Below are positions 5,301 to 24,000 of a stretch of DNA of 28,405 nt, one piece after another; within the stretch, counting starts at the first letter, position 1, and every line of letters starts with the position of its first letter. Both the position numbers and the translations under genes were made by a program. Where the stretch lies: the IMG/VR virus record IMGVR_UViG_3300030390_001258. The stretch is one strand, 5' to 3'. This stretch comes from an uncultured virus (IMG/VR IMGVR_UViG_3300030390_001258). Lineage: Duplodnaviria; Heunggongvirae; Uroviricota; Caudoviricetes. The notes beneath the pieces are model-generated. The model did not search any database, was not told the DNA's origin, and was given only the letters and a program-made list of their open reading frames with translations.

Positions 5301-8300
5301 TGATATAAATGTATCTCCACCAAAAATACCGGCAGGGTATATTGCTTTTGTATTAAAACTATTTGCTCCCGCACCACCCCATCCTAATATAGGTTCTAAA
5401 TACGAAGGACTCTTAGGGCGATCATCAAAAACAAATTTGTCTAAGTCAGATCCAACAACTTCATACCCTGTATACACTAACGTTTGTGCGTCTATAGATT
5501 TATAAACATCAGTTTTAAATGCATCTAAATTAGCAATAAAAATATTACTTCTATCAGTTGTATTAGTAGTAGATAAGTCAGGATTAACTAGCAATGAAGC
5601 CATGCCTTCGTGTGCGCTTCCATAATCTAACGAAGAAAGACCAGCTGGGTCTGCATCAGGTTTATTGTCTAAAGCTTTTAATAAGTTTCCATCCCGTAAA
5701 CCAAAAATAGCAGTAGATTCTCCAAACTCATTAAACACTTTACCTCCAAACCCTAAAGAATGCCCACTAAAAATACTATCACCTAATAAATAAGTCTTAG
5801 CTTTTTGTCCTAACATTTTAGAGTAAGCGCCGTTAGCAAAAGACAATGTTTGATCTATACCGTCAGTTACTCGAGCGTAAATACCGCCAATAAATATAGC
5901 AGAATTAATTAAAGATGGGTAGCAATTAAAGTTCGCATCATACCCCCAATCTTCTCTAATATTAATAGGCTCAGTATCAGAGTCAAAATTCTCCAACCTT
6001 GTAACCATCTTTTTATCTTGATGAACTGTGGGCCCATTCCACACTAAATTACCTACTCTATATTGAGGAGTAATATGTGTTGCTGGGGACAAACTATTTT
6101 TACTTCTTAGTAAATTAAAATCTGGAAAAGAGAAATTTCTATAAAATCCAGCTTCATATCCTGTATCAGTACTAATTAACGGCCAAGGATCTTTGTTATA
6201 AAATATTTCTGGACTGTTTTGTAAAGTACCTAGTATCTGCATTGCTTCAGGAGCTCCATTAGATTCTGAACACATGCCGATTACATTAGCCTTTTTAGAC
6301 ATTGGTAATATAGGAGCTTGCCCTAATATAGTTTTATTTTCATGAGTTCTTTTAGCTCTATAAATTCTAAAACCTTGTACTTGATCTTTTAAACTTTTAG
6401 GAATTTTAACATCACTAAGATCAAATCCTAAAATATTAACTTCGTGTTTAATTTTAGCGTCATATTCATCAGCTGAAATACTCTGAGATGCAATTGTTAA
6501 TTCAATAAAGTGGGTATTAGTCTTACCGGCATTAACAGTTCCACTATTTATGTTTACACTATTAGCAAAAGTTACTTTTCTGCTACCATTTTGGTCAGCA
6601 GCCCACCCACCTCTACCCTGCAAATAAATTTGGTCCCCCGCATTTAAACTTATAGGTATTCCTTCTCCTTCAGGTGATGTTCCACCTGGTGCATTTATTT
6701 CAGGATACATTAAAGTAGTAGTTTCAGTACCATGTTGTTTTGGCCCATCATTTCCGTAATTAAAAGAGTTTCCTTCATAATTAGCTGCTGCATAGTATTG
6801 CACATTATCTTTTATAATAATAAGTCTAGATCTTGTACTATCACACATATTACCACCCCCATCAGATCTGTAAGCATATGTTCTATAACTTAAACTGCTT
6901 ATAGTCATTGGACCAGGAATAACAATTCTATCTCCATTTGGGCAAAACGCTCCAAAAGCTTCATCATCAGATATTTCGCTTGATGAATGCACAGCTGCAT
7001 CAAATGTACAAGGCACGCTCCAAGTAGAGCCATTTTCTGTAATACCCCCATTTGCTGAGTTACCAGGCCACTTAGGACCTCCTGGGTTAGAATTACCTAA
7101 TCTATATACTTTAAAAGTTCCTGTATAATCTGCGCCTATCTGAGATGTACCAGCGCTTAGCGCTGTCTCAATAATACTAGAATCTTGAGTAGGATTATCT
7201 GCAACGTATTCAACCTGAGATACAGATGAAAATTTAGCAACGCTGTTAGATGGAAAATGATGATGTCGAACTTTTTCTCCTTTTAAAGAATCTATAGCTT
7301 CATTAGTATCCAGACTTGTTTCATCCCAAACATCAAAATTAGAATTAGAAGGATACACTTCATTTGTGTTTTCCCAATAATTCATATACTTATTATTAAT
7401 AGAAGTACTGTCTACAACATGAAATTTCTTTGCGTAAGGGCTTAAATGTTTTAAATTAGAATGTGGATTTGAATCTGATAAATCTGATAATAATGTAAGC
7501 TCACTAGAATTGTCTGCACTTTTTCTTCCAGGTATGTGGTAAGCATAAGACATGCTACCGTCATGTAATATAAATGCTATATAAAAAGCATACACTTCGT
7601 CTCTCATGTATCCTTTATATTGATAACTTAACTTATCAGATCTGTAAGATTTATCTGCATCTATGTTTTCTACAGTAGATGATGCTCCATAACTATCTAC
7701 CGGCGTAGTACCAAAGCCTGTTTCAAAATTATCTACAGAAGCAATAAATGTATCAAATTCAGATATTGTTTTTATTTTAGCTGTAAGCTTTATATTGTTT
7801 GCGTATTTTTGAAATCCTATATCTTTATTGCTTGTAGTATTTCCTAAATATAAAACGTCATCTAACTGTACTATATTTTTAGCAGTATCATAACCAATAG
7901 TATCTACAATAACACTTTCTATAGGAGCGGCAGATACATTTTCTGTACCATTGAATGTCACACCATTAGCTATTACTGTATTTACTTCTATATCGTTTAA
8001 TCTGTAAGCATCAGTAGCTTCTCCCATTTTTCGAATTACAACGGGGCGTATGTATTTATAATCTATTTTACCAGTATTAGATACTAACCATTTAATTGCT
8101 TTTGATGTCTGAGTACCAGCTTTTGCTCCATCTACTTTAGTAGTAGGCCTTGTAGAATTAAACTCTTCTACAATAGCTACAGGATTAGAAACAGATAAAA
8201 AATTTGTAGCAACAAGATCTTCATCAACATAAGCTAAAGCTAGATAATAAATACCAGTGGATAAGCCTCCTCCTTCAGATATTGCAGGGTTAGCGGCAGT

Positions 8301-8879
8301 CTCAGATAATGTAATTGTTGGTATTGGTCCTGAGCTTGGAAAAAGATTAAGTAAATCTATGTGGTGCTCATGAGATTCTGTAGCGTCAATACCATATAAA
8401 TTTGCTTTACTTGAATCAACACTTAAATTTCTTTGCTGCCTAGATACGTTAAACGCTCTTGGAGGGTTTAAGTCATCAGTAAAATAAATTATTAAATCGT
8501 TATTTGAATTTATTTTATACGTACCTTCAAGTAAATACTTTACGTTAAAATTTAAACCCGGCTTATCTGCTGTCACTACAGGGTTATATAAAGAAGTATA
8601 AATACCTTTATCCCAAATACCTATTTCACTGCGCTTAAATGAAGACGTAGAGTCGCTTTCTTTTGAAAAAATTACAACTCTATTATCTGAAACTTCTATA
8701 GCACCTAACGCAACGTGGCCTGGCTCTAACGATCCGGCCTTTATTGTTCCTTTTTCGTTAGATATAGATCCTTTTATTCTGTTAATAACAGCATTTAAAG
8801 CATACCTCCATGTATTTTCAGGCTGATCAACATGACCAGTATCTTTAAATAGCCCTTTTAAAAATCTTTTTTCCGCCAT
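2322..8879 (-). CDS. Tail muzzle / tail stabilization protein (crAss Tstab-like), 2,185 aa, with large insertions
   Basis: Motifs typical of this family: FLKGLFKD..., IYFTDDLNPPRAFN, KGYMRDEVYAFYI, YAYHIPGR, VRHHHFP, IFGGDTFISRY, GYGGTQSQW, WTVSY....W.SFHSY.P, and a C-terminal KFVDKWLGIRL. Directly downstream of the tail tubular gene. Confidence 0.85.
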   Translation of the reverse strand: MAEKRFLKGLFKDTGHVDQPENTWRYALNAVINRIKGSISNEKGTIKAGSLEPGHVALGAIEVSDNRVVIFSKESDSTSSFKRSEIGIWDKGIYTSLYNPVVTADKPGLNFNVKYLLEGTYKINSNNDLIIYFTDDLNPPRAFNVSRQQRNLSVDSSKANLYGIDATESHEHHIDLLNLFPSSGPIPTITLSETAANPAISEGGGLSTGIYYLALAYVDEDLVATNFLSVSNPVAIVEEFNSTRPTTKVDGAKAGTQTSKAIKWLVSNTGKIDYKYIRPVVIRKMGEATDAYRLNDIEVNTVIANGVTFNGTENVSAAPIESVIVDTIGYDTAKNIVQLDDVLYLGNTTSNKDIGFQKYANNIKLTAKIKTISEFDTFIASVDNFETGFGTTPVDSYGASSTVENIDADKSYRSDKLSYQYKGYMRDEVYAFYIAFILHDGSMSYAYHIPGRKSADNSSELTLLSDLSDSNPHSNLKHLSPYAKKFHVVDSTSINNKYMNYWENTNEVYPSNSNFDVWDETSLDTNEAIDSLKGEKVRHHHFPSNSVAKFSSVSQVEYVADNPTQDSSIIETALSAGTSQIGADYTGTFKVYRLGNSNPGGPKWPGNSANGGITENGSTWSVPCTFDAAVHSSSEISDDEAFGAFCPNGDRIVIPGPMTISSLSYRTYAYRSDGGGNMCDSTRSRLIIIKDNVQYYAAANYEGNSFNYGNDGPKQHGTETTTLMYPEINAPGGTSPEGEGIPISLNAGDQIYLQGRGGWAADQNGSRKVTFANSVNINSGTVNAGKTNTHFIELTIASQSISADEYDAKIKHEVNILGFDLSDVKIPKSLKDQVQGFRIYRAKRTHENKTILGQAPILPMSKKANVIGMCSESNGAPEAMQILGTLQNSPEIFYNKDPWPLISTDTGYEAGFYRNFSFPDFNLLRSKNSLSPATHITPQYRVGNLVWNGPTVHQDKKMVTRLENFDSDTEPINIREDWGYDANFNCYPSLINSAIFIGGIYARVTDGIDQTLSFANGAYSKMLGQKAKTYLLGDSIFSGHSLGFGGKVFNEFGESTAIFGLRDGNLLKALDNKPDADPAGLSSLDYGSAHEGMASLLVNPDLSTTNTTDRSNIFIANLDAFKTDVYKSIDAQTLVYTGYEVVGSDLDKFVFDDRPKSPSYLEPILGWGGAGANSFNTKAIYPAGIFGGDTFISRYGFVSSLTPSNPEDLSNPKRAVHYHIVETPDNISLRHAEDDDSLYFPGAPAKQLIKYAGKDFSHVDNLRYNDNYSASNDIRPAFPLPIRNINQTDFSTRAHRSTKADAGSFIDNYRIFLASQFKDLPKNRGELWKLASFNNLLYFHMENSLFAAKGKQSMQMNDGSEAFVGSGDIFQQDPDEIVQTATGYGGTQSQWASLTTRYGYFFVDLRSKKIFLMSDKLTEISLLGMEEWFRTNLKFSLQEYGLLPADNPIYCNGLHSVWDPKHRKIVLTLRDSIPTRRFKEGWGIGLVNQNYTGAIYYNKLLNEFVENITGTEAPASDMYSAMLMYGGMVNSTIGIPLWNLDELTQNNPSGSDMLNWSAAPSGAYISTPFFITDQYLGYTSANTIFRFTGTISDNYVTPAMLTAAGVTSLFEYIPIWIEAQLLAGNMSLETNIGIAALSSDAAPTTFNGNIGDLVAEGIVVHIDEADGYAYVVPTTAVVYGDHTSPKPSVEFGCHGVDLADNPDQGFNEWDWGGGQGNTTLLQNNCQVGLYNSGVSHASIFFNTISLIEDYVNPNASSYPAKTASNIASEYTVTIGNETFNDWYLPNRKELKEAVNVLQTYHENANTSPFPAPPFGLAGAQYDPNGLSYGRFWSSSPDPISGTNFNSRALTFGHSVNLANNTPTWGATFHSPRLAPLSVLPIRKRAYDNSPIEPAALKTKVVNCDDKEYFSKGGWTVSYYPENNSWGSFHSYVPYLYFNTSAEFYSLSDRVTSTEDDATNSLFIGGNYESLGSEFVDKYIWQHSVGRYGSFYDGGLVTIPVGHETFEFDFTNIDPFEIEFIDNETKDINLTFSSVNYAADVRINDTKNLEHSGFTSAFLYNSVQMSEELKFEYLVNIRKTRNSWRFNKFRDMSTLQTVSTEYYTPEALNVVGLVSDGTILPDHDNMFLVNGMYEIQNVKYLNLEKLWNLQKKFVDKWLGIRLICSNSENYSVNLYASATEKRKDFR
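3228..3935 (-). other. DUF1566/Lcl-like (C-type-lectin-fold) domain inserted in the muzzle protein
   Basis: IGD...GIVVHID; GGGQGNT; FNDWYLPNRKEL; FWSSS; VLPIRK match the DUF1566 pattern. Boundaries approximate. Confidence 0.75.
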
Positions 8880-9760
8880 TATCTTTCAAAGTTTTCTTTT
8901 GAATTTAATTGTTCAAATACTAAATCATGTTTATCTAAAGATGGTACCATGTGCACCCACTGATTCATAAAGGATTCATATTTATCTATGTCAGGGTAAT
9001 TTGCAGCATTACGCGCTTGTGTGCAGTAGTATTTCCACTGCTGCTCTGCAAACATATAGTCTACCCCATTGTTAACTAGAGTAGGGTACGACAATAATAA
9101 TTTTTTATATATATACCAAAACATAGCTTCTTTAAAACTTATGTCTGCAGGTACTAATGGAAAGTTATCTCCGTCAACAGGGAAAGCCATGTAACTTATA
9201 CAAACGTTTCCAGTTTCAAAAGAAGTTTTTATATACCCATTATCTATAATGTACGTTTCTTCATGCTTTGCATTTATGTTTACGCATTTTTCACAATGAA
9301 TACTTTCATGAAATGTACTAGATCCATATTGTAAAGGAGTTAGAGACGCTTCGTTTTGAAAGAATACATTTTGTAAAATAACAATACGACTATTAATTTC
9401 TTGAAGTGATACCACAGTGTTGCTGTAAGGTAACCCCTCTTCTTGAGCTGCCGCAATTGTATCTGTTAAAGTTCCTACTTTAGCAATCAATGTATCTAAC
9501 TCAGATGTAACAGAGGGAGATATAGCAGAGTTTACAGCTACTTGATTTATGTAGTACAAATCTTTAGGAAGTACATGTCTGTGGTCCTTCATAGGTAGGA
9601 CCCCTGTTTTAGTAACAAGCTGAGAAGAAGATCCAATATGCTCTAAAGCTTCTCCTATCCATTCAACTGCATCATCAATCCAATTATCGTTTTGAAGTCG
9701 CAAATCTCTGAACAACTTTCTTATTACAACTTTGCTGGACTCTGTTCTGTATATAGCCAT
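8879..9760 (-). CDS. Tail tubular / ring protein (crAss Ttub-like), 293 aa
   Basis: VIRKLFRD..D.VEWIGEALEHIG; Y.IDNGYIKTSFETG.V.ISY.AFPVD...FPLVP; EA.FWYI..K; QQW..Y..QA. Immediately upstream of the muzzle gene. Confidence 0.85.
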   Translation of the reverse strand: MAIYRTESSKVVIRKLFRDLRLQNDNWIDDAVEWIGEALEHIGSSSQLVTKTGVLPMKDHRHVLPKDLYYINQVAVNSAISPSVTSELDTLIAKVGTLTDTIAAAQEEGLPYSNTVVSLQEINSRIVILQNVFFQNEASLTPLQYGSSTFHESIHCEKCVNINAKHEETYIIDNGYIKTSFETGNVCISYMAFPVDGDNFPLVPADISFKEAMFWYIYKKLLLSYPTLVNNGVDYMFAEQQWKYYCTQARNAANYPDIDKYESFMNQWVHMVPSLDKHDLVFEQLNSKENFER

Positions 9761-11100: not shown

Positions 11101-11847
11101 TTATTGTTCGTTTTGTTGTTGTCTAGGTTGAGCACTTCCCCCTGACTTAGATCTAGGGTCTTGTGATCGATCATTTAAAGTATCAGGAAAAGTTCCAGAC
11201 AACAAAGTTAACTCTCCGCTTGTGATACCTTGATTAATTAAATTTATCATATCTACTGGAATAGGATAAGCATCTTTGGATGCGTCATAACATTCACTGT
11301 AGTACTCTCCTGTTTCAGGATCTTGTTTACTGCATTGAGAATACCTAGAAACTTCTTCAGGATTTTCAAACACTCCTCGAATATTTATTGTATCTAATCC
11401 ATCAGAATTGTAAATATATAAATAATCTCCGATCATATACGCTTTATACTTACCTTTTGTGTATGTGTCATACGCTAAAAATTGTATTGTATTTGAATTA
11501 ATTAAAGGAATAGTCTTTGTTCCGGTAACATCTCCAATATAAGTTAAAGCGCTTTGGAAATTAAAACGTAGTGCTCTAGGTATAGGACTAACAGTTCTTA
11601 GTACATTAGTTCCTACAGGTAAATTACAGCATTTTGATCCATCTACAATTTGTAAATCTACACAACCTAAGTCTTGTTCTATATGATTAGATATATAATT
11701 ATTACGTGCAAAATCTCTACGAATAAACATAGCTCTATAATGCCGGACATTAAATTTAATCTGCTCTAAAGAAATTTCTTCGTCTTGGTTAGATATACCT
11801 CCTCTAATTAAATTTCGTAAATTGTATGCTATCTCATCTAACGTCAT
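11101..11847 (-). CDS. Tail ring protein (second crAss-type ring/adaptor paralog), 248 aa
   Basis: MTLDEIAYNL..L..GG...D..IS..QIKF....YRA.FIR..; Q.L.C..L..VD; YLYIYN...L..INIRGVFENPEEV; YPIP. Matches the ring-protein pattern and synteny. Confidence 0.75.
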   Translation of the reverse strand: MTLDEIAYNLRNLIRGGISNQDEEISLEQIKFNVRHYRAMFIRRDFARNNYISNHIEQDLGCVDLQIVDGSKCCNLPVGTNVLRTVSPIPRALRFNFQSALTYIGDVTGTKTIPLINSNTIQFLAYDTYTKGKYKAYMIGDYLYIYNSDGLDTINIRGVFENPEEVSRYSQCSKQDPETGEYYSECYDASKDAYPIPVDMINLINQGITSGELTLLSGTFPDTLNDRSQDPRSKSGGSAQPRQQQNEQ

Positions 11848-11853
11848 TATTTT

Positions 11854-12243
11854 TTATTTTTTAGAAGATCCCCCAAAGAAAAAGTCAATTATTGTGTTTA
11901 CTTTACTAGACATCGCCCCAAAGACTGTTGAGATAAATCCTATCTCGTAGTCAGAAAGATCTAGTGAGTTAGTTATAAAATATTTAAACATAAAATAAGA
12001 TATAAAGAAATAAGCGCAAGTAAAAATGATAGCTAAAACTTTTTGTATAAAGCTGTCATCAGTGAACATTGTTCTAGCACTTTTTCTATCCTCAACCTCT
12101 AGCTTAAACACTTCCTGTTCATGCTCCTTCCCTAGCTGCTCTAATTTATTTTTAAGAACTAATCGTTCTTCATCTGTAGTAACAACTTCATCTATTATAC
12201 TAGAGGCTTGCCCTACTAAACTTTTAAGTATATTTTTAAACAT
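11854..12243 (-). CDS. Holin (GTA/3TM-holin-like); likely start at ATG 12243 (MFKNILK...)
   Basis: Amphipathic N-terminus, IIDEVVTTDEER, coiled coil with DRKSAR, two TM helices and an FFFGGS tail. Adjacent to the endolysin. The track's start at 12270 overlaps the endolysin more deeply and is less likely. Confidence 0.75.
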   Translation of the reverse strand: MFKNILKSLVGQASSIIDEVVTTDEERLVLKNKLEQLGKEHEQEVFKLEVEDRKSARTMFTDDSFIQKVLAIIFTCAYFFISYFMFKYFITNSLDLSDYEIGFISTVFGAMSSKVNTIIDFFFGGSSKK

Positions 12244-12691
12244 TTGCGTATTTGTATTTAGTATCTCCATCCTTATTTTTGTAGGCTTCGAGTACTTGTT
12301 TTCTATTATCTTTAGCTTTTAAAGATATATGTATCCAAGCAAAGTCAAACTCATTTATCATCTGATCAAAATCTAAGCCTGATTTTAAAATCCAATCATA
12401 TATAACTTTGTTGTTCATCTCCCCCATCTCCCAAAACTGGATGTCCAATGCCTCACCTTTGCAATGCTGTGAAGAAACGCTGCCCCCAATAGCACGATTG
12501 AGTGACGGGTTACGATAACCACTACTGATCCTGATAGGACCAATACTGCTACGAAGAGGCTGTAACAAATCATCAATAAGATGCTGCATATTTTGTAGGT
12601 GTATTTCAGTCGGCTCATTATCTATCCCTAATCTTTTAGCTGTGTTGCTGTGAGTTATCTCAGACAACGCAAAGTTTTTACTTAATTTCAT
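12236..12691 (-). CDS. Endolysin, peptidase M15 family zinc peptidase (151 aa)
   Basis: LSKNF.LSE...S.TA.R.GIDN.P; ISSGYR...LN.AIGG...SQH..GEA.D; W.HIS. The Zn ligands H, D and H are present. Confidence 0.92.
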   Translation of the reverse strand: MKLSKNFALSEITHSNTAKRLGIDNEPTEIHLQNMQHLIDDLLQPLRSSIGPIRISSGYRNPSLNRAIGGSVSSQHCKGEALDIQFWEMGEMNNKVIYDWILKSGLDFDQMINEFDFAWIHISLKAKDNRKQVLEAYKNKDGDTKYKYANV

Positions 12692-13017
12692 TACTCAGTT
12701 TTTGCTTGTTTAATTTCTAAATCTTTAACTACTTTACGTAGATAGTCTACGTCTTTTTGTAGGTAATCTATTTTTAAATCCTGTTTAGCGTCATCAGGTA
12801 AAGCACCCATTTCACCTCTAGGCCACTTAACTCTAAACTCGTGGTTAAGTTCTACGTTGTCTTGCATACGTACAACATCTAATTGTAATTGAGATATTTC
12901 TGCTCTTAATGTAAACCATATACCTGCAAGAGAAATAATACCAGCTACAATACCTATTAGACTTTTTACGTCTAACTGTACTTTAGAGTTTTCGTTTATA
13001 TCAATATTCTCTTCCAT
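12691..13017 (-). CDS. Single-TM membrane protein with C-terminal coiled coil (108 aa); paralog of 13970..14248
   Basis: TM LIGIVAGIISLAGIWFTL followed by heptads. Shares E...VQ...K.L.GI......L.G.WFTL.A.I with the 92-aa protein. Confidence 0.7.
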   Translation of the reverse strand: MEENIDINENSKVQLDVKSLIGIVAGIISLAGIWFTLRAEISQLQLDVVRMQDNVELNHEFRVKWPRGEMGALPDDAKQDLKIDYLQKDVDYLRKVVKDLEIKQAKTE

Positions 13018-13609
13018 TGAAGTATATTTTTTTACGTGTTACACCGTCACTAGCTATGTATATACCTTTAGTTGGCGTTACTACTCTACCTAATATATCG
13101 TAGTATGTAGTAGGCGTAAAAGGTTCAGGATTAAGTTCTACTACAGACAACCCAAACGATTCAAGATTTTGTTCAAAGTATGTAGAGTCTGTACAACCAC
13201 AGTCGTGTACTACAACACTAGCTGAAGGATATGTATAAATTAAAGTAAGAGCACTATCTAAATCAGGGTAATCTATTATGTGCATAACTGCACCACCCCA
13301 AGCATCACCATTAAAGTCGCGCATTAGTACTCTGTATTGTTTAGGTAAATAAACAATTTGGTCTACCGTAGTAGTACCATTAAATATAACTGTATCTAAA
13401 GCACAGTTACCTATAGACCAAAACATACCATCCATCATGTCTGACTCTGTTACTATAATTTTTTTATAGTCGTCAAAGTTTTGAGCTGTAGAACTAAAAG
13501 ATAAAAATATAAAACCTACTATGTACATAGCTACCATAAGAAACCAAAACATTATTAATGCAATGCTTGACTTATGAAATCTTTTTAAATTTAATTTTAA
13601 TTTGTTCAT
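13001..13609 (-). CDS. Secreted protein with signal peptide and T9SS C-terminal-domain-like tail (202 aa)
   Basis: Hydrophobic N-terminus ending SSTA|Q; YRVLMRDFNGDAWGG; GCTDST; C-terminus LSVVEL...YYDILGR.V.PTKGIYI..DG..RKKIY. Confidence 0.65.
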   Translation of the reverse strand: MNKLKLNLKRFHKSSIALIMFWFLMVAMYIVGFIFLSFSSTAQNFDDYKKIIVTESDMMDGMFWSIGNCALDTVIFNGTTTVDQIVYLPKQYRVLMRDFNGDAWGGAVMHIIDYPDLDSALTLIYTYPSASVVVHDCGCTDSTYFEQNLESFGLSVVELNPEPFTPTTYYDILGRVVTPTKGIYIASDGVTRKKIYFNGREY

Positions 13610-13977
13610 TATTGAAATTTGCTTAGAGTTATATTATCAATTGCTTTTTGTACTTTCTTTTTAGTTGCAACAAGTTGCATCATTATGTTAGGATTAAACC
13701 TTTCTTGTTCTACACCGTTGTCAAATATTATAACTGTGGGTATAGCTGTTACTTTATATTCTTTTTGAACATCAGCTCCTTTAACTATACATAGTCTATA
13801 TGACTCGCAATCTTTTAACGAGGGTAAAAAATCAACTTGATTACCTGCGTTCCACTCAGCCCAGAACTCAATTACCACTGTTCCCTTTGCAGTCTTAGAC
13901 TCAAATGAGCTAGAGCTTACAAACTCTTGAGCTGCAATTGTTAAAGGCAGCAAAGATAAAATTAATAATTTATTCAT
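13609..13977 (-). CDS. Exported thioredoxin-fold protein lacking CxxC (122 aa)
   Basis: Signal peptide MNKLLILSLLPLTIAA|Q; VVIEFWAEWN in place of WCxxC; Y.VTAIPTVIIFDNG.E..R is the canonical cis-Pro segment. Confidence 0.85.
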   Translation of the reverse strand: MNKLLILSLLPLTIAAQEFVSSSSFESKTAKGTVVIEFWAEWNAGNQVDFLPSLKDCESYRLCIVKGADVQKEYKVTAIPTVIIFDNGVEQERFNPNIMMQLVATKKKVQKAIDNITLSKFQ

Positions 13978-14248
13978 ATAACTTTTCTTTAATTGCTTTT
14001 AGATCATCTTTAATCTCTTTTACATCCTCCTGTGTAGACATAATAGTTTGACGAATTAACTGATCTTTCATGTCAAACTCCATACGAGTTATCTCTGGAT
14101 CTAATGGTTCAGGCAATAACTTAGCCTCTGCTATATCTGCTTGCAGTGTAAACCACATTCCAACTAGTGTTGCTATTAAAAAACCAATACCTCCTAAAGT
14201 TTTTAAACTAATCTGTACTGCTGTATCTTCACTAAGTTCTTTTGCCAT
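13970..14248 (-). CDS. Single-TM membrane protein with C-terminal coiled coil (92 aa)
   Basis: TM LGGIGFLIATLVGMWFTL; PEP linker; coiled coil TQEDVKEIKDDLKAIKEKL. Confidence 0.7.
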   Translation of the reverse strand: MAKELSEDTAVQISLKTLGGIGFLIATLVGMWFTLQADIAEAKLLPEPLDPEITRMEFDMKDQLIRQTIMSTQEDVKEIKDDLKAIKEKLYE

Positions 14249-14251
14249 AGC

Positions 14252-15310
14252 TTAAAATATTAAATAATTTATTCCTGTTTTTAATTCGTAAGACGGCATA
14301 CCCCAAAACTTTAAGTGCTTACCTTCAACAAACAAACTAAGATGTCTGTTTAGATTTACACCAAATATTAAACCAGTATCCCACTCTTCTTGTGCACTTC
14401 TTTGATAAGAAAAATTTGTTAAACCTTTATGTAAAGGATATAAAGATCCCCAAGCATGTAGCCAGTAAGTATCTCTATACAAATAGTAATCTAATCCTAG
14501 TACTGCAGATACTTCTTGCTGAAGTCCTATATCTTTTAACACACTTTCATTGTAATTAGTAACTAGCCCTCCAAAATGATACTTGTAAAACTCGTTATCA
14601 CTTGCAGCCAACCATTCTACTTCTCCATTATCTTCATCAAACTGCAACCAAACACCATCGTTAAATCTAAAATAGTTTTGGCTTATAGCAAAATCTTCCC
14701 ACTCCATGTCTACATCCTCTATAGGATTGTAACCATACACAGGATGAGAACGATGGGCTACGCCAAAAGTAAAGTCCAAACCACCAAAACTTTTGCGTAA
14801 CCTAACCTCGCCCAAAGAATACTTTAAATCTATTAATTCATTATTAACATAGTTAGCCTTAGCTGTATACATGTTAGATATGTATCGTACATTATATTCT
14901 TGTTGGGCCAATTCTAATCCATTGTTTCTTACAAAAGAATACTGGAATAAATACTCAAGACCAGGTGCGTTAGATATAGTAGCATAGTCAGTTGCCTGAT
15001 GCTCGTTACCTGTATAAAAGTTGTTTTGTTTAATTTGATAGTCGAATCTTGCTATCTTTCGTATACCTAATGTAAGAATAACGTTAGGTGCGTATTGTGG
15101 AGTAAGCTCTACTAACTCTCCGTCTACAAAGTTAGGTACAAAGTCATAAGGATTGTCAGGCTCTGTACCCTGAACCATAAAACTAGGAGCTCCTATCTGT
15201 GGTGTGTTAGTAGTATAGCTAGCGTAAAATGTAGCAAACCTTAAAAGGTTTAACTGCGCTGTAGCAGTTAACGATGTTAAAGTTAATAGTATGAATAATA
15301 ATTTTTTCAT
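14252..15310 (-). CDS. Predicted outer-membrane beta-barrel protein (352 aa)
   Basis: Signal peptide MKKLLFILLTLTSLTATA|Q. About 12 amphipathic beta-strands by eye (e.g. LDFTFGVAHR, VSAVLGLDYY, YWLHAWGSLY, GLIFGVNL, LSLFVEG). C-terminal beta-signal-like YELKTGINYLIF ending in Phe. Confidence 0.75.
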   Translation of the reverse strand: MKKLLFILLTLTSLTATAQLNLLRFATFYASYTTNTPQIGAPSFMVQGTEPDNPYDFVPNFVDGELVELTPQYAPNVILTLGIRKIARFDYQIKQNNFYTGNEHQATDYATISNAPGLEYLFQYSFVRNNGLELAQQEYNVRYISNMYTAKANYVNNELIDLKYSLGEVRLRKSFGGLDFTFGVAHRSHPVYGYNPIEDVDMEWEDFAISQNYFRFNDGVWLQFDEDNGEVEWLAASDNEFYKYHFGGLVTNYNESVLKDIGLQQEVSAVLGLDYYLYRDTYWLHAWGSLYPLHKGLTNFSYQRSAQEEWDTGLIFGVNLNRHLSLFVEGKHLKFWGMPSYELKTGINYLIF

Positions 15311-16039
15311 TTATGCTAAAGTTAAAACTACTGAAGTTACTCTATTTGAAGTGCTTCCTAAGTTTATCATTATTACTAATTGTTCTGCTATAGCGCAAGT
15401 CCAAGGTGTTATATTATTTGGGCGGTTATTATCTCCATTCCCTAAAGAAGTAGCGTTACCTCCAGCTAATCTATAAGCTGTTATACTTCCTCTAGTAGTA
15501 CTAGTAGATGTTACATGCACTGCATCAACTCTACGTCCTGAAAGCCCAGCCCAAGTAACAAACATTCTTCCAGAATTAGTAGTACTAGTAACCCCTGCAG
15601 GGCTAAATGCTACAGGAACATTGTCACCATTAATCGAAGACAAAGGTAAGGATACAAAATCTACTCCTCTATTTGAGTATATACCTGCGTCTACACCTGC
15701 TGCACCTGCGCTACCCGCAGCGCCTGCCGGCCCTCTAGCCCCTGTATTACCATTACTCCCATTGGAACCATTATTACCTGCGGGGCCTTGCGGTCCTGTA
15801 GCTCCAACAACATCATCTACAACATGGCGGCGTATCTCGTCAAACTCTTCTTGCATCTGTTGCATTTGATATAAGATAGGCCCTAAATGTGGATCGTCTA
15901 GCATTACTACATTTCTACCAGAGGCTACATCTTTATCCCACAAATCTTTTAGTTGTGAGATTTTAGCAGCATTAATTGTATCTGCTCTGCCTCCTGTTTT
16001 AGTATATATACCTTGATATTTTTTATTATTTAATGCCAT
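15311..16039 (-). CDS. Collagen-like fibre protein (242 aa)
   Basis: Short coiled coil (YQMQQMQEEFDEIRR), 13 consecutive G-X-Y triplets (GATGPQGPAGNNGSNGSNGNTGARGPAGAAGSAGAAGVD), then a beta-rich C-terminal head. Confidence 0.8.
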   Translation of the reverse strand: MALNNKKYQGIYTKTGGRADTINAAKISQLKDLWDKDVASGRNVVMLDDPHLGPILYQMQQMQEEFDEIRRHVVDDVVGATGPQGPAGNNGSNGSNGNTGARGPAGAAGSAGAAGVDAGIYSNRGVDFVSLPLSSINGDNVPVAFSPAGVTSTTNSGRMFVTWAGLSGRRVDAVHVTSTSTTRGSITAYRLAGGNATSLGNGDNNRPNNITPWTCAIAEQLVIMINLGSTSNRVTSVVLTLA

Positions 16040-17670
16040 TATGAATTGTCTATTATGTAATATTGTATATATAAAGTTACACTATCTAAACTACCAGAAG
16101 TTATCGCACCAGTAAACGCCACAGTAACATCTTTATCAACGGCCGCAGTTAAACTTCCTCCAACTTCTCCACTATAATCAGCTTTTAATGACCATGTTCT
16201 ATCTCCAGGCACATTATACATAAACCTTCTTTCATATAATATTGACTCAGAGTATACTGTAGTTCCATCATATCCAATACAAAGATCTACAGCAGCACCT
16301 TGCGCAGTACTACCATCTCTATCTACTAAAGCTAGCGCCTCTCCTACCATTATAATAGTATCAGTTCCTGCGTGAGCTACTAATTGTATAGGCGTACTAT
16401 GCATACTATTTAACTGAGCTTCTGTAAGCACTACTTTAGCTTGCAGCCATTTTATTACTCCTGTCGAAACTGCTGATGGTGGCAAATCTGAAGTAAGCGC
16501 CATTACACCACTTGCATCAGGTACGGTTATAGTGCGGTTAGAAGAAGTAGCATTATTTTGTAGTTTAGATTTTGTAGTATTAGTTCCATCATCTCTTACT
16601 AAAAATAAAGCATCTTCCAATGTGAGAGCTCCTGCCATCGTATCACTAACATCATTTTTTAAATAGTCATCTGCTGTTGATACTGCACTTACTGCGTCTG
16701 CATCTACATAAGCTGCAGGTATGGTAGGTTTGTTAAGTATTTGATTATCTCCACTTGAAGAGTTCCAATCACTTTGCACATTAACTTCTGCGCCTGCCGC
16801 TATACCATCTAATTTAGTTTTGTCACCATTAGCAAATGCACCTTCACTTGGTTTAACTTGAAGTGTAGATATTGTTACACCTTTAACTCCTGCTAAATCT
16901 GTAAGTTCTGAATCCATTAAAGCGCCAGATGATTCTACATTTGCTGTATCTGTAACGTCTGCATTGTTCTCTACACCTGTAGCTGTGCTATATCCAGCAC
17001 TACCGTGATTACCCCAACCATGAGCTGTATCAGCTTTAGTACCTTGTGCTGAAGTAGCATAATCTGATGAATCAAAAGCTTTAACTTGTGCTAAATTTGT
17101 TACTTCAGAATCCATCAACGCGCCAGCTGCTTCAACGTTAGTTGCATTTGGAGTAGTATTTGTGTCAGGCGGAGTAGTCCATGTCCCATCAGAATCTAAA
17201 TATTTACCTGCTGCAGCGTCTCCTGCACTCGGAGGAGGCACTAAGCCTTGTTCTCCACCTGACCCCGAATCTCCCACAAAATTTGTTTCGATTCCTGTTA
17301 AAGATCTTGGGTTAGATAAATCATAAACTGAATAAAAAACAAACATACCAGGAAATTCTTCATCTGTGTAAATTTCTAATTTATCTGTTGATCCGCTGCC
17401 CCCAAAGTGCGTAGACCCTGTAGCTCCTACTGGAAAATGATCCGCAGTAAAAATTCTAGTTTCTTGGGGAAGTAATCTTAAATTATATAAGTACTTATAC
17501 CCATCTGCAAAAGTTGAAGTATCTGTAGTGCTTACTCTAATTAGTACAACAGCTGCCTCATCACTTTCATTCAAAATACTTAAAAAGGTGACCTCTTGCA
17601 AAGCAGAAGTATTACTACTAATTTGCACAATTTTATTAGATGACGTTATGTATCCTTGGCCTACCCGCAT
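16039..17670 (-). CDS. Tail or head fibre protein (543 aa)
   Basis: Fibre shaft motifs GLVPPP.AG....YL..DGTW..P, two NVE..GALMDSE.T.LA.VK repeats, DKTKLDGI..GAEVNVQSDWN..SGD..ILNKP and RTITVPDASG..ALTSD. Beta-rich N- and C-terminal domains. Confidence 0.8.
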   Translation of the reverse strand: MRVGQGYITSSNKIVQISSNTSALQEVTFLSILNESDEAAVVLIRVSTTDTSTFADGYKYLYNLRLLPQETRIFTADHFPVGATGSTHFGGSGSTDKLEIYTDEEFPGMFVFYSVYDLSNPRSLTGIETNFVGDSGSGGEQGLVPPPSAGDAAAGKYLDSDGTWTTPPDTNTTPNATNVEAAGALMDSEVTNLAQVKAFDSSDYATSAQGTKADTAHGWGNHGSAGYSTATGVENNADVTDTANVESSGALMDSELTDLAGVKGVTISTLQVKPSEGAFANGDKTKLDGIAAGAEVNVQSDWNSSSGDNQILNKPTIPAAYVDADAVSAVSTADDYLKNDVSDTMAGALTLEDALFLVRDDGTNTTKSKLQNNATSSNRTITVPDASGVMALTSDLPPSAVSTGVIKWLQAKVVLTEAQLNSMHSTPIQLVAHAGTDTIIMVGEALALVDRDGSTAQGAAVDLCIGYDGTTVYSESILYERRFMYNVPGDRTWSLKADYSGEVGGSLTAAVDKDVTVAFTGAITSGSLDSVTLYIQYYIIDNS

Positions 17671-18098: not shown

Positions 18099-21000
18099 TT
18101 AATTTCGTTTTTTGTTTCTATTATTTTTAAACTTTGATACTTTTAACTTAGCAATCCTAGCGTTTTGTACTTGCACAAAATGCTGATCACCATGTTTAAA
18201 TGCAAAGGTAAGAAATCTATCTAAATAATTTAGAGAATCTACAACACCTTCTGAGTATGTTACTTTTCCTAGGTGGCTGTAATCTTGACAATTAAATAAA
18301 GAAGCATTACCAGTTCTATTTAAAGTATAGTCAATTAATTGAAGTTTCCAAAGTATTTCCATATCAACACCATCTAGCATACCAGTTCGCATTTGAGTAT
18401 AAACGGTTTTACTAAGATCTGAAATAGTTTTTTTAAGAGCATCTTGAATACTGTAAATATCTTTTGGTACACATTCATTTAAGTATACACATGTACCATC
18501 ATCTTTAACTGCAATTGGTATTGCTGCAATTTGACTTGGAGATTCAGGATTAATATTTAATCTAGATGTAACAGTTCTACCAGTAAAGTTAAGAGCATTT
18601 ACGTCTACACATCCTTCCGATACATCTTCTTCGCAATAGCCTGCAAGATGTGGGTATAAATCTGCATCTACAGGGTTATTACATAGCCCGTCACAGTTGT
18701 AATGTCCAACTGGATAAATACAAGTACCATCGTCTGAGACTGCATCTGTATTATAATTACATGCTGTTAAATCTGTACATCCTAAAGCATACACACAAGA
18801 ACCATCATTTGTATTGGCTGCAGCATTGTAATTAGTTGCAGTACTATCAGTACAACCATTAATAATACAGCTTCCATCATCAATAGATGCATCTGCATCA
18901 AAATTAGGCGCAGTTGAATCAGTACATCCAAAATCATCTGGCGATAATACAATAGTATCTGTAGTAGTATTAGCAGCTAACTGGCAGAAAGTAGCACTTA
19001 CTCCTGAACTAGTATTTACAGTATCGTAAATAGTATAACTATAATCAATGTCAGCACTTAAACCTGTTAAAACGGTAAGGCCATCATAATCTGAATCTGG
19101 AAGACCTCCAACTGTCCAAGTTATATTGTACCCTATGTTTGGATCAATAGATAGCTCTATAATACCATCTGTAGAATCTGCTTTTGTTGGTTTTGTGATA
19201 ATATGAGTAACATCAAATTGTTGGCAAAATTCACAAGTACCATCATTAAGCGTAGCTGTAGAGCTGTAATTCCAAGCAGCTTCTGACATACACCCGCTTA
19301 CATAAGTACAAGTACCATCATCAACTGTTGCTAATGAGTTATAATTATTAGCAGTAGAGTCTGTACACCCATTAATGCTTGCCTCACAACAATTAGTACA
19401 GGCAGAGTTTACATTTATAAATAATGCGTTTATACTTGTATCTAAAGGTATAGCAGGTAATATAGTAGCACTAGCATTAATTGCCGTTTCAGTTTGATTA
19501 AAATTAAGTGCTGTCGCATCTGTACACCCAACAATAAGAGGGTAGCAATTTAAATCTCCTTTATAAGTAGGGTCTGAAAAATCTGTATTTGGAGCTGTTA
19601 TTGGTACTCCATTTCCAGGTGCGTATCCTTGTTGGTAGCATCCAGGTGTATTAGATCCTGGCTCTACACAAGGATATGAAGCGGTAGAAACATTATCTAA
19701 GCCTATTACAGTAGATTCAATACATCCATATATATTTTCAATACAAGCACTAGTTGCTGTAGGGTTACCCGCAGTAGCTTGAGCATTGTATGAAGGTGAT
19801 TCTGGGTTTGTACAACCTGCTATGTGAGGACTACAAGAACCGTCATCATCAGTTGCAGTTGGGTCAAAATTAGAAGCAGCTGCATCAGTACATCCTGGTA
19901 TGGATTCGTAACAACACTCGTTATTTGAAAGTGCAGGTGTACACGGTATATTTGCATTTGCTACATAATTTGTAGAATTTGTTAATGCGCATCCTGATAT
20001 AAGAAGATCTCCCTGACATCCAGAATTTATATTTCCATAAGTTCCATTTGAAGCTGAAAATAAAGAGTAAGTAAACGCAGGGGTAGCATTATTTATACCT
20101 GTATATAAAGTTTGGCCGAGTGTATACCCATTACCTCCATTCTCTATAGCCACGCCATCCCCAGTTATAGTACCATAGCTATTACTGTTATATGCATCTA
20201 TGTAATCTGTGTTTGTACATCCTATTAAATTAATACAACTACCGTTGTTAAGGCTTGTGTCTCCTGTAGTGTTTGTTCCTGGAAGAGGATCAAAATTATT
20301 AATTTGCCCCGTTTCATTAAAAGATAAGTAGTGCTCTGCGTAAGCTGTATCAGTACATCCTGAAACTTTTGGTGTTAGACACATAGACGGCGTAGAAACT
20401 GCAAAAGGATTTACAATTCCTTCTAAATAATTCATGTCTGTACATGCTAGAATTAATTCATTTTTACACACAACACCTGCATTATCAGAGCTTGCTGTTG
20501 CATTACACCCAGCATCGTAGTAAGTATACTCACTATAATTTTCATCTGTACAACCATATACACTAGTACAAAGACTGTTGTTAACAATATTTGTTGTGCT
20601 AGTGTAAGCACAGTGAGATGGAGTTATAGTTACATCAACATCAGTTTCAATATCTGTATATGTTATAGAATCACTAAACTTAGTTGTACACCCAAATACC
20701 GCAGGATTCCCACACGCTCCATTACTTGCATTGTAGTAGTCAAAAGACTCTGTAACAGAAACTCCATATTTATTCGTGTAAGTAAGGGAAATTCCTGCTG
20801 GAACACCGGCATTACCAAATAGTGCTTGACCATCTGCTCCAGTACCTACTGTAGGCCCATAAGCGTTTGTCTTAGTAAAATCTGTACAGCCTGGAACAAG
20901 TACATTAGTACATGCTGTAGGATCATTAACATTAACACTAGTTCCGCTATAGGAAGTGTACAATACTACCGGGTAATTAAATGGGTTAGAGCTTACACCT

Positions 21001-24000
21001 TGATTTAAAATCTCAGTTGTAGTATCATCGTAGTGTTCTGCGTAATTACTATTAGCACACCCTATTATTGCTGGAGTAGTACATGTTCCGTTATCTATTA
21101 AAGCGCCAGCACTATCTGCATTAAGTGTAGGTGTTGCATAATATTCAAGAAAATTTGGATCTGTACATCCATAAAGAGATTTACATGCTGGATTTGAACC
21201 TATGTGTGTTCCGTTAACTCTTCTTACAGCTAATACTTTAGCTTCAGTAGTTTTAGAAACATCTCTGTTTGTCTTGTCAGTAAGAGATATAGTTTTTGCA
21301 GTGTTTGCATCAACTTGAGTTGAGCTCCAATATTGCCCTTCAAGACTAGTTACTAATCCGGTTGCTTTTAAATTTGTATATATTTCTTCTAACTCTCCTG
21401 TAGACGGTAAATACCAATCTGTAAAAGTATCTTGCACCAAGTTAGTAACTCTGTCTGCTGCTGTATTAGCTGTAGTGCACGCGGCTTCTATTGCGGTGGT
21501 ATTTGCAAGACCTCCACCTATAGCTGTTGAAGTTGCTCCTGAAACGTTTGTACCTACACACCCCCATTTTGAGTTAGCTACAGAATCTAAAGATGCTATA
21601 TAAACATGATCATTTGTTGCATCAGTTTTGTACACTATTCCGCCATCAATTACAGTACCTATTGAAGGTAATAAACTAACATCTTGACTTGCTAAAGTAC
21701 AAGGATTAAACCCTGCATTAGCAGTGCTTCCTGATGGACTTGCTTCGTATGGCGACTCGTAAGAAACTGATACTGTTATTTTACTAGCTCTATTATCATC
21801 ATTTCCTGTATGACTAGTTGGGAACGCACTATTAGCAGTGTTATTGTTTAAGTAAGCAGATTCTAAAGTTGCTTGACTATCTAACGCATATTTATAAGTT
21901 TTAATGTTTATACCCGGTTGCCCTGGTTTTAAAGCAGCGTAGCTAGTAGTTACAGTATCTATTACAGTATCTGCTCTATTTTTAGACGTAATTGTATAAA
22001 CTGCAGATGCGGCTTGAATGTCTTCATGAATAGGCGCAGTACCTAATTTTACATTAACTAAGATATTTCCAGAGTAAGCTCCAGAATCAGCGTATACATA
22101 AGGTTTTGCTTCACAAACTTCTTCAGTAACTATAGGTAAAGGTCCTAAGTATGTATCAGCAACATCTAAGTCGTAGCAACAATTAGATGGAGAAAATTCT
22201 TGATTAGCAGCTGAATTATAATTTGTAGCTGTTGAATCCATACATCCTCGAACTATGCTTACACATGAACCAGGCCCACTACTAATAGAAGTGTTAACAT
22301 CAATACCTCTAACTCCTGTTAAAGGCTGAGGGTAATCCCCAAAACCAGCAGGGGCAGTTGTTGTAGTGTAAACAAACCCACTTGGACCAGTTATACTATT
22401 TTCTAGTTGATGTACCATCGTACTAGGATTCGGATCTTCTCCACGTAATGGTTCTTGCATAGAAAATTTATCAGCAGCTGTATATTCAGTACCAAGACTA
22501 CTTCCGCTTACCCAAGGAGCACCATCTATAACGTTATGGAAGTTTTGATTAAACGTATCACCAGTTCCTACATTATTATTCCAATAATTATTATAATTAT
22601 GAGACGCAGAATCAGTACATCCAAATACTTTAGGGTAGCAAGGAGAAGTTGTATTAGTTTCGCTATGTTGATTTACATTAGCAGATGAATCATAATTAAA
22701 GGCAGTAGAATCCGTACAACCAAAAACTTTAGCTACACAAGGATCTGTTGCGTCAGACGCAGATGTTGCATTTATATTAGCCAAATTATTATAATTAAAA
22801 GCTGCTAAACCATCAGATCCAATATCATTTATAAGTTGAGCTCCGTTTGGTTCTAAACCATTGTCTGTGCACCCATAAGTTTGCTGACAAGTACCAGACA
22901 CTACAATAGTTTGTGTATATGTGCAGCCGGCTAAAGTTCCTGATTCATTAGGATATGTAAATGTTATTTTAACAAATGACGCTACACCTTTACTTGAATT
23001 TGCAGTATCATATATTCCAAGAGGGAAACTTCTTTTTAAACTTATTGCGCTTATTTCTGCATATTTATTTTCAGATAATGAATCAAATTGAATTCTAATG
23101 TCATCTTCTTTTCCTGTAGGGACACTAAATAGCATCCTACGAACTGAAGAGCTTACCCCAGCAGTACTAGTAGCTAAAACATTAGTTCCGTCCGTAACAT
23201 CGACCTCTACATTACTATCATCAGTAGTTAAAATAAACTCTAAAGTGTAACAAGTAGTCTGCCCAGAATTATCGTTATCTAAATACCCAGTATTCATGTG
23301 GTTTAATCCTCCACCAGCTATTAAATCTTCAGCTATTCCAGCTGTATTTAGCATAGCGTACATACCCGTATCTCCTGCTCCTGATCCTGCAGTAACTTTA
23401 ACTGAAGTTGCAGTAGGAGTTGTTATAACAGAATTACTAGATTCTGCTGTCCAACTACCTGCAGCATAAGCAGTAGAATTTATTAACTCAGATCTATTAG
23501 CTTGATCTAATTGCCCCCAAGATACATTGCTATACGTAAATATAGTTGTATTGTAATCCGCCGTTGGACTTCCTGCTGATGTAGGCGGATGAGTTGTTAT
23601 TGTCATTGAAGTTGCCCCACTTCCTCCTAAAGAAGTTATAGGATCTATATCATATAATGGGTCAAACGCAACATCTACTGTAGCAACTCCTGTACAATTA
23701 AGTTGCGAAATTAATGGATAAACAGCTGTGTGTTTTTTAATTTCAAAGTTACTAAATGTTATTATCGCGTTATTACTTATATTTGCCCACTCAAAATAGT
23801 ATTGATGTGTAGCGTTATATTCAAAATCAATATTAATATTTTGAGTAGCAGCATACGCTATTGTTTCAATTATAGTAGTAGTACTACCATCAGATTTTTT
23901 AAGTAGGAATGTTGCATTATCTTCTCCTCCTGTGTACACATTAGTTGCAGATAAATTGTATATATTATTTGTTTCAAGTCCTACAGCATTTATTCCGTAT

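Follow-up and report, generated by a model that had tools for sequence, protein, structure and literature searches.

We describe a trio of phage genes, encoding a predicted outer-membrane beta-barrel, a small membrane-anchored protein and an exported thioredoxin-fold protein, which travel together next to lysis genes in many uncultured phages. The trio was identified in a 28,405 nt stretch of DNA from an uncultured virus of the Caudoviricetes (IMG/VR record IMGVR_UViG_3300030390_001258); this whole stretch is referred to as the window. The best explanation for the region is that a marine crAss-like phage, infecting a Flavobacteriia-type host, carries in its late operon an envelope island that is composite and linked to lysis. 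The trio itself may provide a spanin-like outer-membrane step of lysis in which the barrel serves as anchor, a reading that we favour while giving it less than an even chance.

All long open reading frames (ORFs) of the window are on the minus strand. The trio and the genes that follow it are:

14252..15310, minus strand: barrel, 352 aa, first member of the core trio (ORF translation and predicted fold)
13970..14248, minus strand: anchor, 92 aa, second member of the core trio, transmembrane segment and coiled coil (hydrophobic segment and heptads)
13609..13977, minus strand: thioredoxin-fold protein, 122 aa, third member of the core trio (Pfam Thioredoxin)
13001..13609, minus strand: 202-aa protein, variable accessory, exported or signal-anchored beta-sandwich
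12691..13017, minus strand: 108-aa protein, paralogue of the 92-aa anchor (phrog_20984, 6.6e-13)
12236..12691, minus strand: M15 peptidase endolysin, 151 aa (Pfam Peptidase_M15_3, 2e-16; PHROG endolysin, 1.3e-37)
11854..12270, minus strand: holin-like protein, 138 aa (phrog_3427 'holin', 1.3e-06, N-terminal part only)

A first-pass annotation of the window had described five abutting or overlapping genes between the fibre genes and the endolysin and holin genes, and the ORFs lie exactly where it placed them. The junctions among the five range from a 3 nt gap to a 17 nt overlap, with 8 nt shared by the end of the 92-aa gene and the start of the thioredoxin gene, and the series continues unbroken into the M15 endolysin gene and then the holin-like gene. 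Since homologues occur in hundreds of contigs, these are genes and not chance ORFs. The endolysin has no signal peptide and no transmembrane or other hydrophobic segment. The holin-like protein has a soluble N-terminal part and one or more C-terminal membrane segments (hydrophobic segment at residues 73–99).

The linkage of the three genes was demonstrated by a survey of IMG/VR, from which 80 loci were kept. Gene composition was counted on the 63 loci in which the sequence continues downstream of the barrel gene for at least 4 kb. Homologues of the 92-aa anchor and of the thioredoxin were each present in 61 of these 63 loci, those of the 202-aa protein in 34 and the second anchor paralogue (108 aa) in eight; an M15 endolysin homologue was found in 40 and a homologue of the holin-like gene in 34. 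When the survey was started from the thioredoxin, a barrel gene upstream and an adjacent anchor gene were present in all 46 loci with 4.5 kb of upstream sequence, which are largely the same contigs. This co-occurrence identifies barrel, anchor and thioredoxin as the stable unit. The five-gene system proposed in the first-pass annotation is thus reduced to its first three genes, the 202-aa protein being optional and the 108-aa protein independent. The anchor and thioredoxin genes overlap by 1–59 nt in 68 of 73 pairs. The barrel gene abuts the anchor gene in 50 of 73 loci, and 0.6–2.6 kb of inserted genes separate the two in the other 23. Distance matrices of the three proteins are correlated (r 0.74–0.79), which we do not take as co-evolution because linked genes share ancestry.

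The barrel family is large. Of 1391 candidates in the protein collection, 177 proved to be homologues, and none of these has a Pfam domain or a functional name; a profile search gave 351 representative clusters, and at least 543 relatives are encoded in IMG/VR among 600 pattern-matched stretches. For the barrel and for the thioredoxin alike, all 30 of the 30 nearest Atlas clusters are viral. Among 185,579 species-representative genomes there are only three loci, all on contigs of metagenome-assembled genomes, one of them from Flavobacteriales. BFVD contains one relative of the barrel, A0A516LKJ4 (E 1.6e-24, template modelling score (TM-score) 0.67). The 50,697 phage records of GenBank gave no DNA match to the cassette and one weak match to the thioredoxin. 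Judged from these searches, the barrel and thioredoxin families are phage-restricted. The phages that carry the trio differ in their backbones: crAss ring proteins are present in three of the 80 loci, and elsewhere we found a P22-type portal with a distinct terminase, or a tape-measure protein.

To locate lysis genes around the trio, we ran two-round profile searches for those types of endolysin and holin that occur in the loci. A homologue of either was present within 3 kb of the trio in 35 of the 43 loci with full 3 kb flanks. Of the remaining eight, six contain a DUF5675 protein and two (L017 and L082) contain neither. DUF5675 is structurally grouped with C82 peptidases among candidate lysins in a 2026 preprint. 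Proteins of this family (L041, L070, L076 and L081) were seen only in loci without a detected M15 endolysin or holin homologue. The gene order varies: the lysis genes lie downstream of the trio in the group to which the window belongs, while a holin gene (phrog_3427, 3e-21) lies directly upstream of the barrel gene in L046 and an endolysin-like gene takes this place in L074.

Canonical spanins were sought by a simple heuristic lipobox scan, which considers all start codons in six frames, is distinct from SignalP, and recovers clear lipoproteins in two loci (L116 and L124). In the window it gave three matches, all of them short antisense ORFs on the plus strand, and none on the coding strand, in agreement with the earlier statement that the window lacks a lipobox-bearing outer-membrane spanin (o-spanin) or unimolecular spanin (u-spanin). 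No ORF in the window combines a lipobox with a C-terminal transmembrane segment, the u-spanin layout. None of the five window proteins matches a spanin family in Pfam, PHROGs or NCBIfam; phrog_20984, to which the 108-aa protein belongs, is listed without known function. The gene overlapping the anchor gene, where an o-spanin lipoprotein might be sought, encodes the 122-aa thioredoxin with a signal peptide that ends at A|Q. We also scanned three trio-bearing records rated 100% complete by CheckV (G007, G009 and G011). The barrel of G007 (67.9 kb) shares 91% identity with that of the window; this record has four heuristic matches, none of them credible, the best being antisense inside a 329-aa ORF. 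G009 has four matches on the strand opposite to the barrel; G011 is considered below. Across 73 loci, the heuristic revealed no separate small lipoprotein within 4 kb of the trio. Matches were obtained in 14 of the 73, and in eight of these 14 they are the N-termini of the barrel or of the thioredoxin itself. The barrels of L068, L073, L076, L078 and L080 begin with a lipobox-like L-x-S-C motif, followed by a short Lys- and Cys-rich stretch and then (G/A)Q, so that some lineages may lipidate the barrel. The thioredoxins of L057 and L070 have a Cys near the end of the signal peptide.

Two features from which the first-pass annotation had proposed lysis coupling and spanin replacement, namely the association with lysis genes and the absence of a canonical spanin, extend over many phages; the five-gene unit to which these features had been ascribed is composite. 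Kongari et al. (2018; PMC6139136) give 91 of 677 phages of Gram-negative hosts, about one in eight, as lacking one, including Bacteroides phage B124-14 and Croceibacter phages, and raise the possibility of an outer-membrane protein acting as o-spanin. In a North Sea flavophage study, spanins are assigned in only a few phages. A search of open-access papers and bioRxiv for spanins in Flavobacterium, crAss-like and Bacteroidota phages, and for phage lysis cassettes with a barrel and a thioredoxin, yielded no description of the trio.

The earlier assignment of the 352-aa protein as an outer-membrane beta-barrel is borne out by its signal peptide (hydrophobic segment at residues 4–23, end at A|Q), by a C-terminal aromatic residue (the protein ends in NYLIF, F352 being nearly invariant), and by structure prediction. 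The AlphaFold model, built on a 42-sequence alignment, has about 12 long strands (predicted local distance difference test (pLDDT) 77.9, predicted template modelling score (pTM) 0.64). Foldseek against PDB at E ≤ 1e-3 matched outer-membrane barrels exclusively, with low TM-scores of at most 0.30. In VIA, an all-against-all structural search, the best match was OmpG (Z 12.1, root mean square deviation 5.7, 193 residues aligned), followed by CymA (Z 11.7); TamA, BamA and autotransporter barrels gave Z 9–11. These fold matches are generic and singled out no particular family, neither PorV nor PorP nor any other. The window barrel has no family in Pfam (E ≤ 0.1), PHROGs or NCBIfam, and none of 20 divergent members matched outer-membrane protein families at E ≤ 0.01, including the PorP/SprF-type barrels of the type IX secretion system (T9SS). 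Three of the 20 gave unrelated or sub-threshold matches, to MG2, to PQ-loop and to an FGE-sulfatase domain elsewhere in the protein (P0273). The model thus supports an outer-membrane barrel fold for this phage-specific protein. A virion or ejection protein was considered and rejected because the presence of signal peptides indicates that infected cells export these proteins by the Sec route.

Conservation along the barrel peaks at residues 76–120 (0.77–0.83). This region includes a 30-residue stretch between strands 2 and 3 that is modelled at low confidence and is not a strand. If the N-terminus of the barrel is periplasmic, as is general in outer-membrane barrels, this conserved turn (residues ~86–116) probably faces the periplasm. 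A long conserved periplasmic turn would be unusual for such a protein and would make a natural docking site. The long loops at ~41–60 and ~211–225 have conservation values of 0.22–0.40.

The 122-aa protein was identified as a thioredoxin by Pfam (PF00085, 6.5e-06, 26.5 bits against a cut-off of 23.5) and by 198 PDB sequences at E ≤ 0.01, the best being a solved thioredoxin (2.5e-12). Its signal peptide also ends at A|Q. The active site WCGPC is replaced by an invariant W-N43-x-x-N46, in which both catalytic Cys positions align to Asn; the earlier description as an exported thioredoxin fold without CxxC is therefore correct. N43 and N46 are invariant across 71 thioredoxins, as are P80 and T81 of the retained cis-Pro loop. 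With invariant Asn in place of both catalytic Cys residues, the protein is not expected to be a redox enzyme. In thioredoxins the substrate groove is lined jointly by the cis-Pro loop and the positions of the two active-site Cys residues. Their conservation here suggests that a binding site has been retained without the redox chemistry. In comparison with TrxA-type thioredoxins, to which it is clearly homologous, the protein differs by its two Asn residues, its signal peptide and its phage-only family. The signal peptides of barrel, thioredoxin and 202-aa protein all end at A|Q, and the Gln is nearly invariant in each of the three families. Cleavage at this site fits the signal peptidase I pattern reported for Bacteroidetes.

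The 92-aa anchor consists of a single hydrophobic segment (residues 11–35), a Pro-rich linker and a C-terminal helix of four heptads (residues 65–92), a heptad pattern matched by none of 300 shuffled sequences. Directly before the heptad helix is the motif E57-F-x-x-K61-D62-x3-R66-x2-I69, in which E57, K61, D62, R66 and I69 are invariant. The 108-aa protein has the same architecture, with a hydrophobic segment at residues 13–41, the motif EFRVKWPRGEMGALPDD and a C-terminal heptad helix (residues 75–102, matched by 2% of shuffles). The two are paralogous over their N-terminal 41 residues (41% identity, E 1e-10), so that the pair of paralogous proteins with transmembrane segment and coiled coil claimed before was recovered. 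Both have the layout of an inner-membrane spanin (i-spanin), an N-terminal transmembrane segment followed by a helical or coiled-coil domain, with only about four heptads.

From these features we propose the following mechanism. Barrel, anchor and thioredoxin would be exported late, together with the production of endolysin and holin. The barrel would pass through Sec and insert into the outer membrane, and the 92-aa protein would sit in the inner membrane and expose its Pro-rich linker and short coiled coil to the periplasm. The redox-dead thioredoxin, still possessing a peptide-binding groove made up of N-x-x-N and the cis-Pro loop, might link the conserved helix of the anchor to the conserved periplasmic turn of the barrel and in this way tie the inner to the outer membrane. 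After the holin has fired and the M15 endolysin has removed the wall, the complex could destabilize or fuse the outer membrane, an integral barrel thus replacing the lipoprotein anchor in the last step of lysis. The topology of the three proteins, their mutual binding and their role in outer-membrane disruption are all deductions of this proposal.

Several observations weigh against a spanin-like function. The putative surface loops are the most variable parts of the barrel, which is predicted by a role in exclusion or as receptor and is not needed for lysis. The anchor extends only ~57 residues beyond its transmembrane segment, ~28 of them in heptads, which is short for the width of the periplasm even with the thioredoxin added, and the charges flanking the transmembrane segment are ambiguous as to topology. 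In divergent cassettes, a staphylococcal-type nuclease, PAP2 phosphatases and other exported proteins are interleaved with the trio, and this fits a general envelope island as well as it fits a lysis device. In 11 of 34 loci, the cassette of 108-aa protein, endolysin and holin has no trio in the 3 kb that precede it. One complete trio-bearing record, G011, encodes a 38-aa ORF with a lipobox followed by a 135-aa protein with an N-terminal transmembrane segment. The surveyed loci come from related phages, and the counts are therefore not independent events. Finally, a protein search of the 50,697 GenBank records revealed the barrel and the 92-aa anchor in no cultured phage.

Further details of two of these features were recorded. 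The nuclease gene lies between barrel and anchor genes in L041, L054, L070 and L082, and the PAP2 lipid phosphatase genes are downstream in L074, L076 and L081. The G011 pair (L222:6202-6752, equivalent to G011:25202-25752, plus strand) is 6.5 kb from the barrel gene and on the opposite strand; it could be a spanin-like or an exclusion pair.

The variable loops and interleaved genes are among the features that agree with superinfection exclusion or host-surface remodelling. Barrel and helpers would then change or cover the surface of the cell or prevent DNA from entering it, either protecting the infected cell or sparing progeny from being lost on debris, and proximity to lysis genes would merely reflect a dumping ground for accessory genes after the tail fibres. 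There are parallels: lambda Lom and the many unnamed or porin-like phage barrels in BFVD resemble the trio barrel as Sec-exported accessory proteins encoded beside tail-fibre genes, and the optional 202-aa beta-sandwich could be a surface or periplasmic binder. The trio barrels nevertheless differ from these in forming their own family without a Pfam entry, in their obligate anchor and thioredoxin and in their consistent adjacency to lysis genes. We consider this explanation unlikely. The genes are embedded in the late operon of structural and lysis genes, in which stop and start codons overlap and the coding strand is free of internal terminator-like sites; for exclusion, this is late. Moreover, the trio adjoins lysis genes on several unrelated backbones and in varying order, which is unexpected under hitch-hiking, and the strongest conservation of the barrel is on the putative periplasmic side and not at the surface.

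Adjacency to holin and endolysin genes is equally expected if the trio tunes the firing of the holin, that is, if the anchor is a holin partner or antiholin with a periplasmic sensor, the thioredoxin a periplasmic regulator and the barrel an outer-membrane input that signals superinfection or the state of the envelope, to which its variable surface loops would be suited; the trio would then not break the outer membrane. In T4 lysis inhibition the RI antiholin, a secreted periplasmic protein, acts on the T holin; the trio is similar in that a single-pass membrane protein and a secreted periplasmic protein are encoded with lysis functions. It differs in that there is no homology, that the T4 pair has no outer-membrane barrel and that RI does not have a thioredoxin fold. 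In their small size and single membrane pass, the anchor and its paralogue resemble class III holins or antiholins, and single-pass coiled-coil paralogues of 75, 88 and 108 aa are stacked before the endolysin gene in L105–L109 and L119. A Shewanella prophage study shows that the holin step can require small transmembrane proteins of unknown type. We nevertheless regard a role in lysis timing or inhibition as rather improbable: Pfam, PHROGs and NCBIfam reveal no homology to a known antiholin or LIN protein, a dedicated sensing barrel has no known precedent, and the outer-membrane step would stay unexplained in genomes without a spanin. As a further alternative, the barrel itself would be the effector, a former of pores or lesions in the outer membrane that the thioredoxin, as periplasmic plug or chaperone, would hold closed until its release when the anchor is freed at holin triggering, without any bridging or fusion of membranes. 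The short anchor would then pose no problem of length, a thioredoxin that is redox-dead yet conserved in its groove would suit a holdase or plug, and the highest Z-scores belong to monomeric channels of 14 strands (OmpG, CymA) and to barrels of the Omp85 or autotransporter type. However, a pore of 12–14 strands alone would not rupture the outer membrane and the fold matches are generic, so that we give this possibility a very small share.

The spanin-like reading can be compared with the outer-membrane disruption systems described so far. The two-component spanins surveyed by Kongari et al. (lambda Rz/Rz1, T4 PseT.3/PseT.2, T7 gp18.5/18.7) share with the trio the location in the lysis cassette, an inner-membrane protein with N-terminal transmembrane segment and coiled coil, a partner gene overlapping the anchor gene, and the presumed action on the outer membrane after wall removal. 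In contrast to them, the trio has no lipoprotein subunit, its part in the outer membrane being an integral barrel of 352 aa. It always includes a third protein, of thioredoxin fold, and its anchor is much shorter than Rz and unrelated in sequence to any spanin family. The unimolecular spanin T1 gp11 and the disruptin phiKT gp28 (bioRxiv 10.1101/515445) are likewise alternatives to Rz/Rz1-type pairs. These are single small proteins (a lipoprotein with a C-terminal transmembrane segment and an amphipathic cationic peptide, respectively), whereas the trio comprises three exported proteins including a barrel. We tentatively suggest that the trio could represent a third class of phage outer-membrane disruptor, a three-part trans-envelope complex with a barrel as foot and a redox-dead thioredoxin as clasp, used by hundreds of spanin-less uncultured marine Bacteroidota phages of several morphotypes, and that the 108-aa protein could be a wider lysis component shared with SAR11 phages.

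Viral lysis of marine Bacteroidota drives carbon turnover after algal blooms, and the trio is a concrete, abundant and tightly defined candidate for the outer-membrane breach in their phages. If the spanin-like reading is true, it constitutes a new phage lysis architecture of barrel anchor and dead-thioredoxin adaptor and supplies annotators with three new markers by which lysis cassettes can be recognized in ocean phages, crAss-like ones included. Even as a timing or exclusion device, the trio would be a widespread phage-only envelope machine without a described counterpart.

The 202-aa protein has a strong and long N-terminal hydrophobic segment (residues 13–42), a GD(A/G)W(G/N)G motif and a conserved C-terminal tail of three strands. 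The model (pLDDT 70.9) consists of a beta-sandwich and three C-terminal strands; its best fold match (Z 5.7) is an unrelated beta-sandwich, and no T9SS C-terminal domain (CTD) structure was among the fold matches obtained with a model of this confidence. For the window protein there was no T9SS CTD profile match in Pfam at E ≤ 0.1 or in NCBIfam at E ≤ 1, and none of 34 family members matched the Pfam Por_Secre_tail at E ≤ 1. PDB sequence matches were absent at E ≤ 10, and the homologue search returned close relatives only. The last ~35 residues may resemble the final strands of a T9SS CTD. The label of a secreted protein with T9SS CTD given in the first-pass annotation is thus justified for the export signal and not for the CTD: the protein is an optional add-on and not a demonstrable T9SS cargo. 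In seven loci (L007, L009, L010, L012, L013, L015 and L016; for example L007:9697-9816) all that remains of the 202-aa protein is a 39-codon ORF between the thioredoxin gene and the next gene, which matches its N-terminal membrane segment. It may be a deletion remnant or a functional micro-membrane protein.

The 108-aa protein is far more widespread than the trio. It has at least 1403 homologous clusters, many of them 75–93% identical, on contigs of up to 194 kb. In 29 of the 49 viral loci with enough downstream sequence, an M15 endolysin gene starts within 40 nt of the stop codon of the 108-aa homologue. Among 34 loci with 3 kb of upstream sequence, 12 lack barrel and thioredoxin, and 11 of these 12 still have the adjacent endolysin gene. 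Scanning the whole records of trio-less cassettes revealed a barrel in none of five, these records being only 24–45% complete. Judged from the gene neighbourhoods, the 108-aa protein marks a separate and far wider module linked to endolysin and holin, which the trio often joins.

GenBank matches of the 108-aa protein are confined to three Pelagibacter phages and one uncultured Fussvirus. In Pelagibacter phage HTVC027P the homologue is encoded two genes before an M15 peptidase. In the T7-like Pelagibacter phage HTVC121P it follows a holin-like gene and stands just before the terminase genes, which we take to be the position of T7 gp18.5. In both phages (HTVC027P gp13–gp17, L001; HTVC121P gp51–gp54, L002) the gene after the homologue encodes a conserved protein of ~72 aa, which has two or three Cys residues and a hydrophobic N-terminus but no clear lipobox; upstream in HTVC027P are a second protein with transmembrane segment and coiled coil and a signal-peptide protein. 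This gene group may be an unrecognized lysis set of SAR11 phages. Elsewhere the neighbours include lipoproteins. A 56-aa ORF (L124:4321-4491) with a lipobox and a C-terminal hydrophobic segment, a layout like that of a unimolecular spanin, overlaps the stop of a 108-aa homologue, and a 119-aa Asn/Pro/Tyr-rich lipoprotein (L116:3627-3986) is encoded just upstream of another. These cases hint at a pairing of the 108-aa family with lipoproteins in certain large phages.

The remaining assigned genes of the window are:

16039-17670, minus strand: tail-fibre gene (PHROG tail fibre, 5e-20), upstream of the cassette
15311-16039, minus strand: collagen-repeat fibre gene, upstream of the cassette
11101-11847, minus strand: ring protein 2 (Pfam, 1.1e-35)
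8879-9760, minus strand: ring protein 1 (Pfam, 8.6e-52)
2322-8879, minus strand: muzzle protein (Pfam, 5.1e-43)

By its two ring proteins and its muzzle protein the phage is classified as crAss-like. The closest cultured relatives of the ring protein, only 24–27% identical, are from Flavobacterium psychrophilum phages and gut crAss-like phages. In FpV4, a distant cultured crAss-like Flavobacterium phage, the annotation around the ring protein is uninformative. A promoter and terminator scan found promoter-like sites to be rarer than in shuffled sequences, with a consensus that may not fit Bacteroidota, and no terminator-like site on the coding strand inside the cassette.

Two further ORFs of the window were noted. 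A 67-aa hydrophobic ORF (12415-12618, minus strand) is nested in the endolysin gene in another frame and may be due to chance or encode a nested membrane protein; a similar 67-aa ORF follows the 108-aa homologue in L095 (4394-4597), at the place of the endolysin gene in other loci, and no endolysin homologue was detected there. A giant ORF (18099-28403, minus strand) precedes the fibre genes; it encodes at least 3434 aa and is open at the edge of the window. Its sole match is weak and sub-threshold (Pfam Lcl_C, 3e-4), and it may encode a fibre, a cargo or another type of protein.

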